Origin: a virus
Lineage: Duplodnaviria; Heunggongvirae; Uroviricota; Caudoviricetes
Reading direction: 5' to 3' (one strand)
Length of the DNA: 50,414 nucleotides
Virus record (IMG/VR): IMGVR_UViG_2718217859_000006
In this document: positions 4,601 to 47,107 of the stretch, one piece after another
How the letters are laid out: every line of letters begins with the position of its first letter
Numbering within the stretch: position 1 is the stretch's first letter
Made by a program: the position numbers and the translations under genes
The notes under the pieces: generated by a model
Databases searched by the model: none
What the model was told of the DNA's origin: nothing
What the model saw: only the letters and a program-made list of their open reading frames with translations

Positions 4601-4774
4601 TATCGCGTCCTCAACAATGAATTTTGTGATGCAGTGCCTGGTGCCTCCAGGTGACGTTAACCAGTTAACAATTAACGTCGGATACAGAGAATCCACCCAT
4701 AACACTGTTTTTGGTTTTAACTGTTCCGCGTGCGCTTAGCCGTATTCACCGCATCACAAAATTCACTTTAAAAA

Positions 4775-4827
4775 GGGCGGCAGAGCAGTCACGGAGTAAA
4801 ACTGATACCGCCAAACGTCACCAGAAA
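4775..4827 (-). ncRNA. dicF: DicF small regulatory RNA (53 nt, anti-ftsZ), followed by a U-tract
   Basis: Reverse complement reads TTTCTGGTGACGTTTGGCGGTATCAGTTTTACTCCGTGACTGCTCTGCCGCCC then TTTTT, matching the DicF sequence as recalled; correct position between ydfC-like ORF and dicB. Confidence 0.85.
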
Positions 4828-5086
4828 ATTGATAACAGAGGGCGTTGCAGCGGGGTTGTCACTTAAGCGTATGGTCAACCTGACAACCCGGTGTCCTCAA
4901 CGGGGAAGGAATAACCCCGCCATACTTACCGCCGCGCCATTTTGCGGGTTGCCACAACCGGAAGCGCACGGTCGAATTAAATTTAACGACACCGTACAGT
5001 GAGACGAACTTCGCCGTGCGCTTTCGTGTTGTGTGCCTGCTTTTAACCACGTCAGGCGAGGTGGTATCCTTAAAATCACCACAGTT

Positions 5087-5662
5087 TTAAGGATTCATTA
5101 AGCAATGTCGCAACCACCAATAAATCCGCTTAAGAACATGAAAATTGATTACTGGTATAAAGCTCTTACAGTTGTTGGCGCTGCGTTGTTTGTCTTTAAT
5201 GGAACGTCTTTTTTTGACAGATATCCCGTTGTTCCATTGGGTTTTTTGTCCTCCGGCATCTTTTTTATTGGTTTGGGGGAGTGGATTAATCACCCTCTCA
5301 TAGTGAGATTTATTGGTCCTGGAGTTTGGACTCGTGGATATAATCGTTCTTCGTGCGCACTCGGTATCATCTTCGACATACTTGGTTGTTTCCTGATTGT
5401 TACAGGAGTCGTCAAGTTCTTCTGATGTAAAACCGCAAATGGGGCACGTAACGGGAATTTTGAAAAGCGTTTCTCCGGGTTCCAGAACAAAATTTTCTGC
5501 GGTCTGATTTTGCTTCTCATATTTGTGCTCCGCGTCATTGTGAGAGCACATTCTTATTCTGAGTGCCTGTTTAAACTCACTGAAGCTGAGAGCTTCTTCG
5601 CCTTCTGCAAGGCCTTCGAAGTATTCTTCGTAAGCCTTTTCCATGATTGTGTCGAAATCCAT
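5087..5662 (-). CDS. YdfB/YdfC-like ORF of the dicB operon (appears as one continuous 192-aa frame)
   Basis: Strong AGGTGA SD 5 nt before Met (MDFDTIMEKAYEEYFEG...); contains a CPICG zinc-ribbon-like motif; C-terminal 80 aa are low-complexity and overlap a plus-strand ORF. Confidence 0.4.
   Translation of the reverse strand: MDFDTIMEKAYEEYFEGLAEGEEALSFSEFKQALRIRMCSHNDAEHKYEKQNQTAENFVLEPGETLFKIPVTCPICGFTSEELDDSCNNQETTKYVEDDTECARRTIISTSPNSRTNKSHYERVINPLPQTNKKDAGGQKTQWNNGISVKKRRSIKDKQRSANNCKSFIPVINFHVLKRIYWWLRHCLMNP
5105..5425 (+). CDS. Hypothetical small membrane protein (2-3 predicted TM helices), antisense to the ydfB/C-like ORF
   Basis: 106-aa ORF with AGGA SD; strongly hydrophobic segments (ALTVVGAALFVF, GFLSSGIFFIGLG, GIIFDILGCFLIVTGVV). 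Only one of this and the overlapping minus-strand frame can be fully coding. Confidence 0.3.
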   Translation: MSQPPINPLKNMKIDYWYKALTVVGAALFVFNGTSFFDRYPVVPLGFLSSGIFFIGLGEWINHPLIVRFIGPGVWTRGYNRSSCALGIIFDILGCFLIVTGVVKFF

Positions 5663-5663
5663 A

Positions 5664-5819
5664 TCACTCACCTGAGTTTCTTTCCAGCCAGCGACGGGCA
5701 CCATTTTCGGTTTTAAACGTTTTGCTTTTGGTATACGTCATCGCGGTGAACGTGCCGTCCTGGTTGGGGAACACGCCACATACCAGAGATTCGCTGTTGC
5801 CAAGATCGATAGTATCCAT
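5664..5819 (-). CDS. ydfA: YdfA-like small protein (51 aa)
   Basis: MDTIDLGNSESLVCGVFPNQDGTFTAMTYTKSKTFKTENGARRWLERNSGE; first gene of the dicB operon, after dicA on the same strand. Confidence 0.75.
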   Translation of the reverse strand: MDTIDLGNSESLVCGVFPNQDGTFTAMTYTKSKTFKTENGARRWLERNSGE

Positions 5820-5895
5820 GCTGACCTCATTTCCCCTTAACGCCGGGGTAGCGGAACTGTTTGCTGAGAACACCGTGCGGTGTCTTGATGGAGGT

Positions 5896-5946
5896 AATTT
5901 AGTTTTCTCATTATTTTTCGTCAAGGTTTTTTGATGAGAAAACTCA
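5896..5946 (-). promoter_or_regulatory. Putative dicB-operon promoter (-35 TTGACG, 17-bp spacer, -10 TAAATT) flanked by inverted operator half-sites TGAGAAAACT
   Basis: Read on the minus strand: TTGACG-N17-TAAATT; a perfect 10-bp inverted repeat AGTTTTCTCA (5901-5910) and TGAGAAAACT (5935-5944) brackets it. Confidence 0.5.
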
Positions 5947-6011
5947 AGTGTTGGCGCAAGATAAAGCCAATACATTGAAATGTAAGGCTTTAAAATTTTG
6001 TGAAGGGATGA

Positions 6012-6419
6012 TTATTGATGCTTGTTGCGTTTGCGAGCCTCTAATAGCTCGGTGAACAGGCGATTAAAATTCTCAACGCGGGCGCGGAGTTCGCTGAGTT
6101 GTGCTTGTTGCTCTGATTTAGGAAGTGCGCGATACAAACGCAGCATCTCTAACTCATCTTCCGATAAGTCTAAGGCACTATCGAGTGAAACAGGGGGAGC
6201 TGGTGTTTTGTCCTCGTCGCCAAACAGTATCCAAGTTGGTGAACATTGCAATACCTCGGCGAGGCGATGCAAATTTTGCCCGCGCGGGGCTGTATGGTCA
6301 CTTTCCCATAATGAAATTGATGAGCCAGATACGCCAGCAGCTTTGCTTAAACCGTTTTGACTTAAGCCTACCTGCTTACGTCTTTCTCTAATGCGTTGAC
6401 CTAAAGTTTTCTCGTTCAT
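6012..6419 (-). CDS. dicA: DicA-like HTH (XRE-family) repressor
   Basis: From Met-18 of the 152-aa ORF (MNEKTLGQRIRERRKQVGLSQ...), 135 aa like DicA; ends LQCSPTWILFGDEDK...NFNRLFTELLEARKRNKHQ; divergent from a Cro-like gene. Confidence 0.85.
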   Translation of the reverse strand: MNEKTLGQRIRERRKQVGLSQNGLSKAAGVSGSSISLWESDHTAPRGQNLHRLAEVLQCSPTWILFGDEDKTPAPPVSLDSALDLSEDELEMLRLYRALPKSEQQAQLSELRARVENFNRLFTELLEARKRNKHQ

Positions 6420-6440
6420 ATTTAGATATCTTAATAACCC

Positions 6441-6484
6441 TTGACTTGAGATTCCTTGAGTGATTAGCATTGAGAAAACTCAAT
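6441..6484. promoter_or_regulatory. dicA/dicC divergent control region with operator-like repeat ATTGAGAAAACTCAAT and a -35-like TTGACT
   Basis: Same TGAGAAAACT motif as at the dicB promoter; TTGAG occurs three times within 45 bp; located between the divergent repressor genes. Confidence 0.45.
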
Positions 6485-6496
6485 ATTGGAGGTGCG

Positions 6497-6724
6497 ATGT
6501 TTAAATCAGACGTAATTAATTTTTACGGTACGAAAGCCAAAGTAGCGAAAGCTGCTGGCGTTGACCCATCTGCTGTTTCTCAATGGCAAGAGCTGGTTCC
6601 TGAAGGTCGCGCGATGCGTCTACAGGAGGCATCTGGCGGCGAGCTTCTGTATGATCCCAAGGTTTATGACGAATATCGTAAGACGAAGCGGGCGGGGCGG
6701 TTGAACAATGAAAATCACTCCTGA
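6497..6724 (+). CDS. dicC: DicC-like (Cro-like) regulator
   Basis: 75 aa from ATG with GGAGG SD (MFKSDVINFYGTKAKVAKAAG...EGRAMRLQEASGGELLYDPKVYDEY); divergent from dicA. Confidence 0.8.
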   Translation: MFKSDVINFYGTKAKVAKAAGVDPSAVSQWQELVPEGRAMRLQEASGGELLYDPKVYDEYRKTKRAGRLNNENHS

Positions 6725-15328: not shown

Positions 15329-15628
15329 AAAAATTCCTTAATACTGATAACTTGGCGCACTATACACACGTTCCTGAAGAAAGCTATAGTTTTTTGATGG
15401 GGTTGAAGATGGCTGGATGTCTAAAATAAACATTGCTTCATATGTTCAACTATGCGTTAATGATTGCGTCGGTTTGAAGAACAGACGATATACGAAGTAG
15501 TTTACTAAAGCAGTTCTCATTTCAGGTGTTATTCACTTATTCCTTCTTTGAGTCTCTCCAATTAAGTACGAAGTCGTTTCTGTTATGCAAACCATTTATG
15601 CCGAAAGGCTCAAGTTAAGGAATGTAGA

Positions 15629-15844
15629 ATGTCAAATAAAATGACTGGTTTAGTAAAATGGTTTAACGCTGATAAAGGTTTCGGCTTTATTTCTCCTGTT
15701 GATGGTAGTAAAGATGTGTTTGTGCATTTTTCTGCGATTCAGAATGATAATTATCGAACCTTATTTGAAGGTCAAAAGGTTACCTTCTCTATAGAGAGTG
15801 GTGCTAAAGGTCCTGCAGCAGCAAATGTCATCATTACTGATTAA
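15629..15844 (+). CDS. cspB: Cold-shock protein, CspB type
   Basis: 71 aa [38 protein letters not shown]... with RNP1/RNP2 motifs. Confidence 0.85.
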
Positions 15845-16125
15845 AATTCATCGCTCGTCTGTATACGATAACGAAGAAGGCTGATGCCTGAGTAGAGATA
15901 CGGACAGAGTAGTGAATATTGGATCTCTTTAATAAAAAGTAAGGAGGTCCAATACATGAAACAATGGCTAGCATATTTGGCAAAATCTTAATCAGGAAAA
16001 GTATGCTAACCATTGTGGTGAAGTGCAGGTTTGCTGCATGAATAGTTTTACAGCAGAAGCTAACTGCTGGCATGGCAAAACAAAGTGCGTAAGTGGATGA
16101 CTCCCACAAAAAGCACCACAATCTC

Positions 16126-18153: not shown

Positions 18154-18515
18154 GGTAATATTAAATCGGAACATTTACATCGCGGAATGTAAAATTTGAA
18201 TAAAAAGGACTCTTCCATGAGCCAAAATTCCTGAAATCTTAAGGGTAAGATAAAAGGTCTTAATCAGAATGACACGTTTTATTAATAAATAAAGCTATTC
18301 TTTCATTGCTGTGTTTTTCTTTACAAAAGTAATCCTTGCTATGGGTGGTTAATCATGCGTTAATGGTGTTCTGGTTTGTTACAAATTTATCTGAAGCAGT
18401 CATTGTTATAATTTTATTATTTGTACCTCTTGAGATTTCCTTGTTGGTTTTTCTCTCTGATATTTTTTTTCGGACCATTCTGCCCAAGGGCTAATTTCTT
18501 CAAAAGGTAATAATT

Positions 18516-18728
18516 ATGTCTAACAAAATGACTGGTTTAGTGAAATGGTTTAACCCTGAAAAAGGTTTTGGTTTCATCACGCCGAAAGATGGCAGCAAAG
18601 ATGTGTTTGTCCATTTCTCAGCAATTCAGAGCAACGATTTCAAAACATTAACTGAGAATCAGGAAGTTGAATTTGGTATTGAGAACGGACCTAAAGGTCC
18701 TGCCGCTGTTCATGTAGTGGCGCTTTGA
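18516..18728 (+). CDS. cspI: Cold-shock protein, CspI type
   Basis: 70 aa [45 protein letters not shown]... Confidence 0.85.
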
Positions 18729-18999
18729 GGTAGACAATATTACAAACCATATTCACTTTAGATGCCCGTGTTGTCATGGTTCCCAGTATAGAACATCATC
18801 TTTTGATGTTTCTGACATGAATCCTTTCGGGGCAAAATGTATCTTTTGTAAATCAATGATGATTACATTTGATAATATTTCACAATACTTAAATGCCAGC
18901 CGTCTGTCGTTGGATTTAAAAAAGTGAAAATGAAGGCTCCTTCGGGAGCTTTTTTGCTTGGTGTCTATTCGATGGATACTCACATACTACGGTAACATC

Positions 19000-46532: not shown

Positions 46533-47107
46533 TGGCATTCAGAATGAGTGAACAATCACGGACCATAAAAATTTATAATCTGCTGGCCGGAACTAATGAA
46601 TTTATTGGTGAAGGTGATGCATATATTCCGCCTCATACAGGTCTGCCAGCAAACAGTACCGATATTGCACCGCCAGATATTCCGGCAGGCTTCGTGGCTG
46701 TTTTCAACAGTGATGAGTCATCGTGGCATCTCGTTGAAGATCATCGGGGTAAAACGGTTTATGACGTGGCTTCCGGCGACGCGTTATTTATTTCTGAACT
46801 CGGTCCGTTACCGGAAAATGTTACCTGGTTATCGCCGGAAGGAGAGTTTCAGAAGAGGAACGGCACAGCCTGGGTGAAGGATACGGAAGCAGAAAAACTG
46901 TTCCGGATCCGGGAGGCGGAAGAAACAAAAAACAACCTGATGCAGGTAGCCAGTGAGCATATTGCGCCGCTTCAGGATGCTGCAGATCTGGAAATTGCAA
47001 CGGAGGAAGAAATCTCGTTGCTGGAAGCATGGAAAAAGTATCGGGTATTGCTGAACCGTGTTGATACGTCAACTTCACAGGATATTGAATGGCCAGCACT
47101 GCCGTAG
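46532..47107 (+). CDS. tfaQ: Tail fibre assembly protein (Tfa)
   Basis: 191 aa; start overlaps the stf stop (ATGG/TAATGG); typical Tfa position. Confidence 0.85.

Follow-up and report, generated by a model that had tools for sequence, protein, structure and literature searches.

Antisense overlapping genes are a known, sparsely populated kind of bacterial gene, represented by ano, asa, oloz0137 and others described by the Neuhaus/Scherer laboratory in Escherichia coli O157:H7 (PMC9927249, PMC5960689). Long antisense protein-coding overlaps in bacteria are rare and contested, and most of them are short, lineage-restricted and proposed from expression data alone. Another relevant setting is the cI-N region, a known mosaic hotspot with prophage defence genes (PMC8585504); morons, in turn, are highly expressed in lysogeny (PMC7067206). 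In this work, we describe a locus that belongs to both settings. It lies in the virus record IMGVR_UViG_2718217859_000006, a stretch of 50,414 nucleotides (nt) called here the window, whose source is a Qin/DicB-type lambdoid prophage. In it, a plus-strand gene for a small membrane protein with three transmembrane (TM) helices, referred to below as the TM gene, is covered over its entire length by a longer open reading frame (ORF) on the minus strand, in the early-left (dicB) operon.

The explanation that we prefer, with a probability of roughly 0.6, is that a mobile cassette of ~520 bp carries two genuine genes, which are convergent and fully overlapping codon for codon, and that translation through the TM gene is selected. 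We read the locus as a mobile module of two overlapping genes, whose membrane effector is probably made during lysogeny. Translation of the antisense ORF through the membrane gene is probably required, either for Rho shielding and silencing or to make an antagonist.

The membrane-protein gene and the frame opposite it

The earlier note on this DNA reported two long ORFs on opposite strands, and both are present in the ORF list and overlap completely (Table 1). The minus frame indeed stays open for 192 codons, that is, 191 amino acids (aa) and a stop counted from the ydfB ATG at 5662, with an AGGTGA Shine-Dalgarno (SD) sequence 8 nt upstream. The 106-aa plus ORF likewise has the SD (AAGGA, 5089-5093) and the hydrophobic helices ascribed to it, three in the structural model. 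Both codon grids begin at coordinate mod 3 = 2, which makes this an exact in-register antisense overlap, and minus-frame stops can therefore arise only from the plus codons TTA, CTA and TCA. None of these occurs among the 10 Leu and 6 Ser codons of the plus gene.

The plus ORF is almost certainly a real gene. A search of 5.8 billion proteins returned 60 relatives of ~100-110 aa with 34-99% identity, from Yersinia, Herminiimonas, Reinekea and many metagenomes. A further 33 loci of the same family came from a scan of genomes; the motifs DYWYKA and GLGEWINHPL are invariant in it. Most of the distant members carry 3-17 in-register antisense stops and are therefore readable on the plus strand only. 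Between the window and a Rac-like prophage copy (L012; comparison loci are designated by L numbers), the differences at plus codon positions 1/2/3 number 11/7/34, and identity over the overlap is 90/107 aa in the sense translation versus 66/107 in the antisense one. According to the earlier note, a minus frame conserved as protein, with synonymous variation across 5105-5425, would make the membrane ORF an antisense artefact; that pattern was found in the plus frame instead. By these comparisons, the membrane gene is shown to be under purifying selection at the protein level.

The AlphaFold2 (AF2) model of the plus protein has a predicted local distance difference test score (pLDDT) of 84.6, with helices at residues 17-32, 42-62 and 85-105 and a beta-hairpin at 65-79. 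Together with the protein-level conservation and the third-position variation, this confident three-helix model bears out the proposal of a genuine membrane-protein gene. The product is a three-helix inner-membrane protein of an uncharacterised family across Proteobacteria. The model has no fold match in the PDB at E <= 0.001, and single-sequence and alignment scans of Pfam, PHROG, NCBIfam and PADLOC gave no match for the protein; in PADLOC-DB, neither of the two proteins matches a catalogued defence protein at E <= 1. None of the 21 distinct E. coli variants examined has a disrupted TM gene. In Shigella flexneri SFBU0723 (L041:6001-6282), a diverged copy is broken after 10 codons (MSQPPINPLRT, then a stop) and is probably a pseudogene.

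Composition and constraint of the minus-strand frame

The ydfB ATG (5662), which lies 1 nt past the ydfA stop, is taken as the biologically sensible start of the minus ORF. From there, the ORF consists of a YdfB-derived segment, a head outside the TM gene and a tail antisense to it. The full-length 42-aa YdfB is not present, since the match is limited to residues 1-34 and divergence sets in at window 5561/5562. The earlier suggestion of a ydfB-ydfC read-through did not hold beyond these residues: the minus ORF has no similarity to K-12 YdfC (BLASTP E = 17) and the ydfC DNA is absent, having been replaced, so that homology to YdfC is rejected.

The cassette-borne head contains EPGETLFKIPVTCPICGF, with IPVTCPICGF at 5429-5458 and CPICG at 5432-5446; its possible native start is the Met at 5549-5551. 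The motif P-G-x8-CPxCG recurs in three diverged enterobacterial lineages, in a group of gammaproteobacterial metagenome-assembled genomes (MAGs; GWKFxPLYxHCPKCGCD) and in Roseateles. In most lineages, ATG start codons are found 16-45 codons upstream of the motif. In the enterobacterial lineages, only 2-3 codons separate the end of the motif from the codon that is antisense to the TM stop. Variation in the head includes synonymous changes in the minus frame, the Ile-Pro pair, for example, being encoded as ATT CCC, ATT CCG, ATT CCA, ATC CCC or ATA CCT. Among the five MAG-group sequences, the variable columns over 20 head codons fall 4/4/16 at minus codon positions 1/2/3, and the ratio of synonymous to nonsynonymous changes (S/N) is 70/25 in the minus frame, the best of six, with one TM-strand frame close at 65/40. 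For the enteric heads, S/N is 31/41 in the minus frame, again the best of six, against 24/44 in one TM-strand frame.

This TM-strand frame shares its wobble positions with the minus frame, and third-position periodicity was therefore rejected as sufficient proof of minus-strand coding. The case for such coding rests instead on the S/N counts, the start and stop architecture, and the open tail. The TM-strand frame is less likely to be the coding frame of the head because it has no consistent start codon across lineages and ends 10-63 codons past the TM stop. In the window, it corresponds to a 36-codon open frame at 5397-5507 (plus), +1 to the TM frame, with wobble positions shared with the head and a semi-conserved peptide, KPQMGH.

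The description of the head as zinc-ribbon-like in the earlier note proved too generous. A zinc ribbon, for example of the FmdB/CxxC_CxxC_SSSS or Lar-like type, has two CxxC/CPxCG knuckles that supply four zinc ligands. Here, conservation across lineages is confined to one knuckle (CPxCG, with CxCDxC in P0121 and P0134), and there is no second conserved Cys pair. Comparison with zinc-ribbon families gave only sub-threshold Pfam matches (rubredoxin-like, E ~0.01, in 3 of 11 members) and a Lar-like PHROG at E = 0.38. Scans of the minus ORF against Pfam, PHROGs, NCBIfam and PADLOC found nothing beyond the families of YdfB and YdfA and phrog_35040, to which the minus ORF itself corresponds. The AF2 model of the minus protein has a mean pLDDT of 42 and no structure beyond the YdfB part. 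An invariant Ser after the knuckle is not meaningful; it is merely the antisense of the TGA stop, and is Leu in L019, L132 and L021 (antisense of TAA/TAG).

Two further observations concern the head. A copy in Pantoea rodasii (L022:5968-6459), beside a Peptidase_S24 repressor, has an open minus frame with Met codons and a PG-containing head without the Cys knuckle, which may be a degenerate or variant form. A convergent small ORF with CPSCG at L042 was considered as the ancestral unfused state and dropped, as it looks unrelated.

The tail behaves differently from the head. Its TAA stop (5087-5089) lies 16 nt beyond the TM start codon, and across lineages the stop falls 15-36 nt past that codon. 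The earlier note called the last stretch of the ORF low in complexity. It is the hydrophilic mirror of the TM gene: it is basic and hydrophilic (grand average of hydropathy, GRAVY, -1.12; isoelectric point, pI, 9.6), as expected for the antisense of such a gene. Its AF2 pLDDT is 30-44, and it is predicted to be disordered. Between the window and L012, differences at minus positions 1/2/3 are 9/9/18 in the head and 37/8/13 in the tail; the corresponding values are 4/5/11 and 23/5/14 for L019 versus L132, and 4/3/16 and 59/20/32 for L019 versus L134. By these substitution patterns, the head appears to be evolving as minus-strand coding sequence and the tail as a passive mirror of the TM gene, with the flip at the TM stop. 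The tail is thus shown, on the comparative data, to be under no sequence constraint of its own beyond that of the TM gene.

What does appear constrained is the absence of stops. In 107-codon segments of low-GC3 prophage genes (GC content at third codon positions <0.48), zero in-register antisense stops were seen in only 2 of 79. In prophage genes of the same GC3, TTA and CTA together make up 31-36% of Leu codons, and TCA makes up 23-33% of Ser codons. The probability of zero stops, obtained per lineage by resampling synonymous codons with local usage, was 0.009 for the window, 0.028 for L012, 0.0035 for L005, 0.0115 for L009, 0.021 for L019, 0.008 for L132 and 0.44 for L021, a high-GC locus. 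Pooled over five genes, TTA, CTA and TCA account for 0 of 80 Leu and Ser codons, and other A-ending codons are used normally (ATA 11, CCA 9, ACA 7, GGA 10). Among the three main enterobacterial lineages, 51-62 of 107 third positions differ, and these lineages are therefore largely independent draws.

The open frame also goes with the head. Loci were found via the TM protein, and hence the count is unbiased for the minus frame: all 5 head-bearing loci are open, versus 5 of 20 head-less ones (one-sided Fisher P ~0.005), and the five open head-less loci all have GC >= 0.46. In a distance tree, the TM genes of head-bearing loci fall within one subfamily, which fits a single origin and long retention. 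Both frames are open, as an antisense overlapping pair demands, with zero stops in at least six lineages, codon-specific avoidance and an intact TM gene. Judged from these comparisons, the minus ORF is probably translated and kept open by selection.

The cassette and its place in the immunity region

A query of positions 4800-6100 matches many E. coli chromosomes at ~99.9% identity and phage HannyBb at 99.2%. Homology to the K-12 Qin prophage ends at window 5044 and resumes at 5562 (BLASTN), and the block between them is therefore a foreign cassette. It took the place of the 3' end of ydfB (its last codons), the whole of ydfC and ~120 bp of further Qin sequence. A copy was detected in 805 of 5426 complete E. 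coli genomes (~15%, strains of Shiga toxin-producing E. coli included), nearly always at >=99% identity. The block also occurs in Rac-like, P22-Cro-type, Yersinia and Pantoea prophages, with neighbours that are otherwise different. In E. coli PS2Canimalfeces12, ydfA and the repressor gene are separated by an inserted RelE/ParE toxin-antitoxin pair (L004:2535-3007), a further sign that the region is an insertion hotspot. The features of the locus are collected in Table 1.

Table 1. Features of the cassette locus in the window (strand as +, - or. for none).
Feature	Coordinates	Strand	Evidence or remarks
106-aa membrane protein gene, three TM helices and beta-hairpin	5105..5425	+	homologues, third-position substitutions, AF2
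Conserved non-coding block upstream of the TM gene	5029..5104	+	near-invariant across three prophage lineages
Longest minus ORF	5087..5704	-	205 aa from ATG at 5704
191-aa fusion ORF, early-left (dicB) operon	5087..5662	-	YdfB(1-34) + CxxC head + antisense tail; phrog_35040
YdfB-derived N-terminal segment, residues 1-34	5562..5662	-	100% identity to K-12 YdfB; Qin homology from 5562
Cassette-borne head of minus ORF (~35 aa), outside the TM gene	5426..5561	-	conserved P-G-x8-CPxCG motif
Tail of minus ORF, 112 codons, in-register antisense of the whole TM gene	5087..5425	-	zero stops in all head-bearing lineages
Mobile cassette	5045..5561	.	Qin homology break; same block amid differing neighbours in other prophages
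ydfA (DUF1391)	5664..5819	-	Pfam PF07151, E = 8e-27; RefSeq annotation; directly upstream in operon
DicF small RNA	4775..4826	-	Rfam RF00039, 76.7 bits; downstream, same operon
DicA/CI-like helix-turn-helix (HTH) repressor gene, immunity region	6012..6470	-	ORF list; annotated HTH protein / transcriptional repressor

The order of genes in the window is repressor(-) ydfA(-) ydfB'(-) TM(+) dicF(-) dicB(-), and that in K-12 Rac is racR(-) ydaG(-) ydaF(-) sieB(+) kilS(-) kilR(-). The statement in the earlier note that sieB occupies this site in Rac was correct, and the TM gene has this position and orientation in five prophage lineages. The Rac-like loci L012 and L013 contain recE, kilR, the 106-aa gene and a RacR-like repressor in this order. 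The TM gene adjoins a CI/RacR-type repressor, opposite the early-left genes, in the Qin-like window and in the Rac-like, P22-Cro-type, Yersinia (L009-L011) and Pantoea (L022) prophages, and in the P22-Cro-type prophages L005-L008 it has three different left neighbours. The idea of a superinfection-exclusion-type membrane protein was thus upheld as to its membrane nature and the sieB site, but not as to homology: the 106-aa protein has no detectable similarity to K-12 Rac SieB (BLASTP E = 12, 13% identity over 45 aa), and membership of the SieB family was rejected on this E value and the missing Pfam, PHROG and NCBIfam matches. From its immunity-region site opposite the early-left operon, as with sieB in Rac, we infer that the membrane protein is a lysogen-expressed moron, namely a superinfection-exclusion, abortive-infection (Abi) or toxin-like effector whose transcription would be driven by its own conserved upstream element. 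An exclusion or Abi role in particular is conceivable but less likely than not.

The upstream block of ~75 nt is near-invariant, although the TM proteins of the three lineages are only 51-58% identical. It includes a GCCTG..CAGGC hairpin, GGTGGTATCC, an extended -10-like TGgTATCCT (5062-5070) and TTTAAC (5042-5047). A 10-bp inverted repeat (5066-5075 / 5085-5094) holds the TM SD AAGGA and the minus-ORF stop, and the left part of the block is also found in K-12 Qin, where it lies upstream of dicF. Possible identities of the block are a promoter or operator, an RNA element, and a recombination joint. Assignment of an extended -10 promoter is a reading of the conserved letters only. A structured RNA was rejected for too little support, as folding z-scores range from -1.8 to +0.3 and the alignment holds one compensatory pair, in the inverted repeat.

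In most genomes, RefSeq annotates only a 'ydfB, incomplete' pseudogene (window 5561-5662; flagged by PGAP as 'incomplete, missing C-terminus'), and a few genomes have a 191-aa hypothetical protein, WP_000344958.1. The HannyBb annotation has the 205-aa minus ORF without the plus gene. The plus gene is called in none of the annotated records inspected, and a literature search found no description of the cassette locus. A genuine membrane gene of the immunity region is thus generally missed, the locus being annotated as a ydfB pseudogene, as the minus ORF alone, or as nothing. HannyBb also has small hypothetical proteins annotated at window 4789-4878 and 4897-5082 (minus), in the DicF-precursor and conserved non-coding region, which are probably spurious calls. 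Elsewhere in the window, two matches to the cspA-thermoregulator 5' untranslated region (15468-15860 and 18370-18755, plus) suggest prophage cold-shock protein genes as in Qin, and an IS009 RNA match lies at 46875-47073 (plus).

Elsewhere, the plus-gene family occurs in accessory DNA: beside kwaA-kwaB, in small same-strand gene arrays, and with insertion sequence (IS) elements or a P4-like primase. At L134:784-2777, the Kiwa defence genes kwaA-kwaB directly follow a head-bearing overlapping pair and share a strand with its TM gene. At L132:542-9124, L015:106-3120 and L016, TM-family genes stand in long same-strand arrays of small genes (HigB/HTH, ParD-like, acetyltransferase, glyoxalase, GFA) that resemble the cassette arrays of integrons; the ORF chosen by the gene caller in L132 is the antisense CxxC one, which is the only opposite-strand gene in the array. 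An Arcobacter sp. MAG chromosome has three TM-family copies at three sites (L030, L031 and L032) with identical identity and E-value (38%, 5e-15), which suggests carriage on a repeated mobile element.

Proposed explanation, alternatives and known systems

The preferred explanation of two selected, fully overlapping genes can be extended to a mechanism. In the window, the minus ORF of the cassette has been fused in frame by recombination to the first 34 ydfB codons, and the fused ORF would be translated within the DicA-repressed dicB operon. Selection in the tail would act on translation itself and not on the tail sequence. With ribosomes moving along the antisense transcript, Rho would be kept from terminating it, and antisense transcription could then cross the TM gene to its ribosome-binding site and the conserved upstream block or promoter. 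On induction, at the lytic switch, this read-through would silence the TM gene, which would amount to self-immunity, and it would also reach dicF, dicB and exo. By the coordinates, ~600 nt upstream of DicF would be left untranslated without the tail ORF. The CxxC head might additionally act as a protein antagonist or regulator. We regard the Rho-shield mechanism as conceivable, with the odds against it. The wider proposal of a conserved 'translated antisense' module, in which a CxxC gene is extended through a membrane gene, ribosome occupancy shields the transcript from Rho and the effector is silenced, is a little more doubtful.

Several findings weigh against this picture. A broken minus ORF stands beside an intact TM gene in L013 (TGA inside CPVCG) and in L009 (without a start codon), three of the 21 distinct E. 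coli variants have a truncated minus ORF, and frameshifts occur in several database entries; the reverse case, an intact minus ORF with a damaged TM gene, was seen in no copy. Prophages, or at least decaying ones, can therefore do without the minus ORF. A TM-strand frame that is only modestly worse in S/N has the same third-position periodicity as the head, and with one conserved CxxC knuckle a canonical zinc ribbon is not evident. A promoter and terminator scan of 4700-6600 found no site near the TM gene and zero terminators. The exclusion or Abi role rests on position and one Kiwa-adjacent homologue, with no PADLOC match. The idea of Rho shielding or operon polarity does not account for loci whose minus ORF has no gene downstream (L019, L132 and L134), except if the point of the arrangement is to silence the TM gene, and Rac does without an open frame across sieB, which has 7 antisense stops. 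Anti-polarity in the dicB operon was rejected as the sole general reason on these last two grounds.

Among the alternatives, the one that survives best, though we consider it unlikely, is a toxin-antitoxin-like or defence module in which the TM protein is the effector and the basic tail is a functional disordered domain that binds, for example, nucleic acid or the effector. It would explain better than the Rho shield why the arrangement is kept without a downstream operon, and the accessory contexts (Kiwa, HigB/ParD-like arrays, IS elements, P4-like primase) as well as the uniformly hydrophilic, basic character of the tail point the same way. Set against these are a tail with no constraint beyond that of the TM gene and no predicted structure, and the lack of any match to known toxin-antitoxin or defence families in the scans described above. 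Typical type I toxins are, moreover, smaller than 106 aa.

It is less probable still that only the plus membrane gene is real, with the minus ORF an in-register antisense artefact and the conserved stretch beyond the TM stop a non-coding 3' element or a short TM-strand ORF. Under such a reading, the unconstrained mirror-like tail, the absence of predicted structure, the minus ORFs broken beside intact TM genes, the variable third positions shared with the +1 frame of the TM strand (S/N 65/40 and 24/44) and the pseudogene status in most of RefSeq would all be natural. It leaves unexplained, however, why at least six lineages with GC3 of 0.36-0.57 specifically lack TTA, CTA and TCA, and why open frames go with the head motif. 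The TM-strand ORF that it may invoke has the inconsistent start and scattered ends described above, whereas in each comparison the minus frame outscores the other five, and the CPxCG knuckle is fixed 2-3 residues from the TM stop.

A similarly improbable reading, which we place slightly lower, accepts the CxxC head as a real small protein and takes the tail for a neutral run-on, the antisense of a TM gene being stop-poor. The head is conserved as protein and the tail, predicted to be disordered, is not; chance would leave a high-GC member such as L021 open (P = 0.44), and the ORF ends soon after leaving the TM coding region. Yet 3-5 antisense stops would be expected at the GC3 of the enteric, L019 and L132 copies and none was seen in any lineage, head-less relatives of similar GC carry 3-17, and although each Leu or Ser codon is one synonymous step from an antisense stop, none has arisen with third positions near saturation. 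That the minus ORF is the only gene (as in HannyBb, phrog_35040 and WP_000344958.1) and the 106-aa plus ORF an artefact can be dismissed, for although gene callers usually choose the minus ORF (P0061 has 1798 members versus ~280 for the plus protein) and HannyBb annotates it alone, the comparative data refute this: the plus family spans many genomes with 5-17 antisense stops, overlap substitutions fall at plus third positions with plus identity far above minus, and the AF2 confidence is high for the plus protein but low for the minus one.

The explanation by two selected genes can finally be set beside described systems. The dicB operon of K-12 Qin is the same operon with the same flanks (ydfA upstream, dicF-dicB-ydfD downstream), and its first 34 ydfB codons are kept; it differs in that the ydfB C-terminus and the whole of ydfC have here been replaced by the cassette, with no YdfC similarity. 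SieB, a superinfection-exclusion or abortive-infection membrane protein of Rac, P22 and lambda, is encoded in Rac at the same immunity-region site, after ydfA/ydaF-type genes and opposite the early-left operon. Both are small membrane proteins, and the need of a phage to escape its own exclusion gene on induction would apply here too; in P22, Esc and the sas RNA reportedly give self-immunity to SieB. In contrast, SieB has 162 aa against the 106 aa and three TM helices of the protein described here, and the 7 in-register antisense stops of Rac sieB leave that gene without an overlapping ORF. Type I toxin-antitoxin systems pair a small hydrophobic toxin with a non-coding cis-antisense RNA. The locus would resemble them in that a convergent antisense transcript would span a hydrophobic membrane-protein gene completely, its ribosome-binding site included. 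Here, however, the antisense transcript would carry a conserved ORF, and the protein is of 106 aa with three helices.

The BstA/aba system is similar in that a prophage defence gene beside the repressor has a self-immunity determinant inside the same locus (PMC8585504). It differs in that aba is a DNA element of 63 bp and bstA has the same strand as the repressor gene, whereas the putative counter-element here would be a translated antisense ORF; there is no homology. If the present explanation is true, the prophages would likewise gain self-immunity to their own exclusion or abortive-infection protein on induction. The translated-antisense module would then be a new regulatory principle for overlapping genes, together with a new family of membrane effectors of prophages and mobile elements. 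TM-synonymous stops could separate 'product matters' from 'translation matters' for the overlapping ORF, and would bear on whether translated antisense transcription turns off morons on the opposite strand in early operons.

The O157:H7 overlapping genes resemble the cassette pair in having a protein ORF antisense to a gene, with oloz0137 versus yadF as an example of the in-register frame -1 (PMC9927249), and in that annotation pipelines retain one of the two frames. Those genes have ~60 codons, occur in Escherichia/Shigella only and are supported mainly by ribosome profiling (Ribo-seq) and competition assays (PMC9927249), whereas in the cassette pair the overlap is a whole 107-codon gene, conserved from Gamma- to Betaproteobacteria, and the support is comparative. 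The embedded gene is here the older and better conserved one, the longer ORF is the add-on, and the signature is 'frame open, sequence free'. The pair stands out for its complete 107-codon overlap, its spread from enterobacterial prophages to Betaproteobacteria and its codon-specific stop avoidance, with the non-overlapping head as an internal control for second-strand coding. On comparative grounds, it would be a bacterial example of completely overlapping antisense genes with unusually good support.

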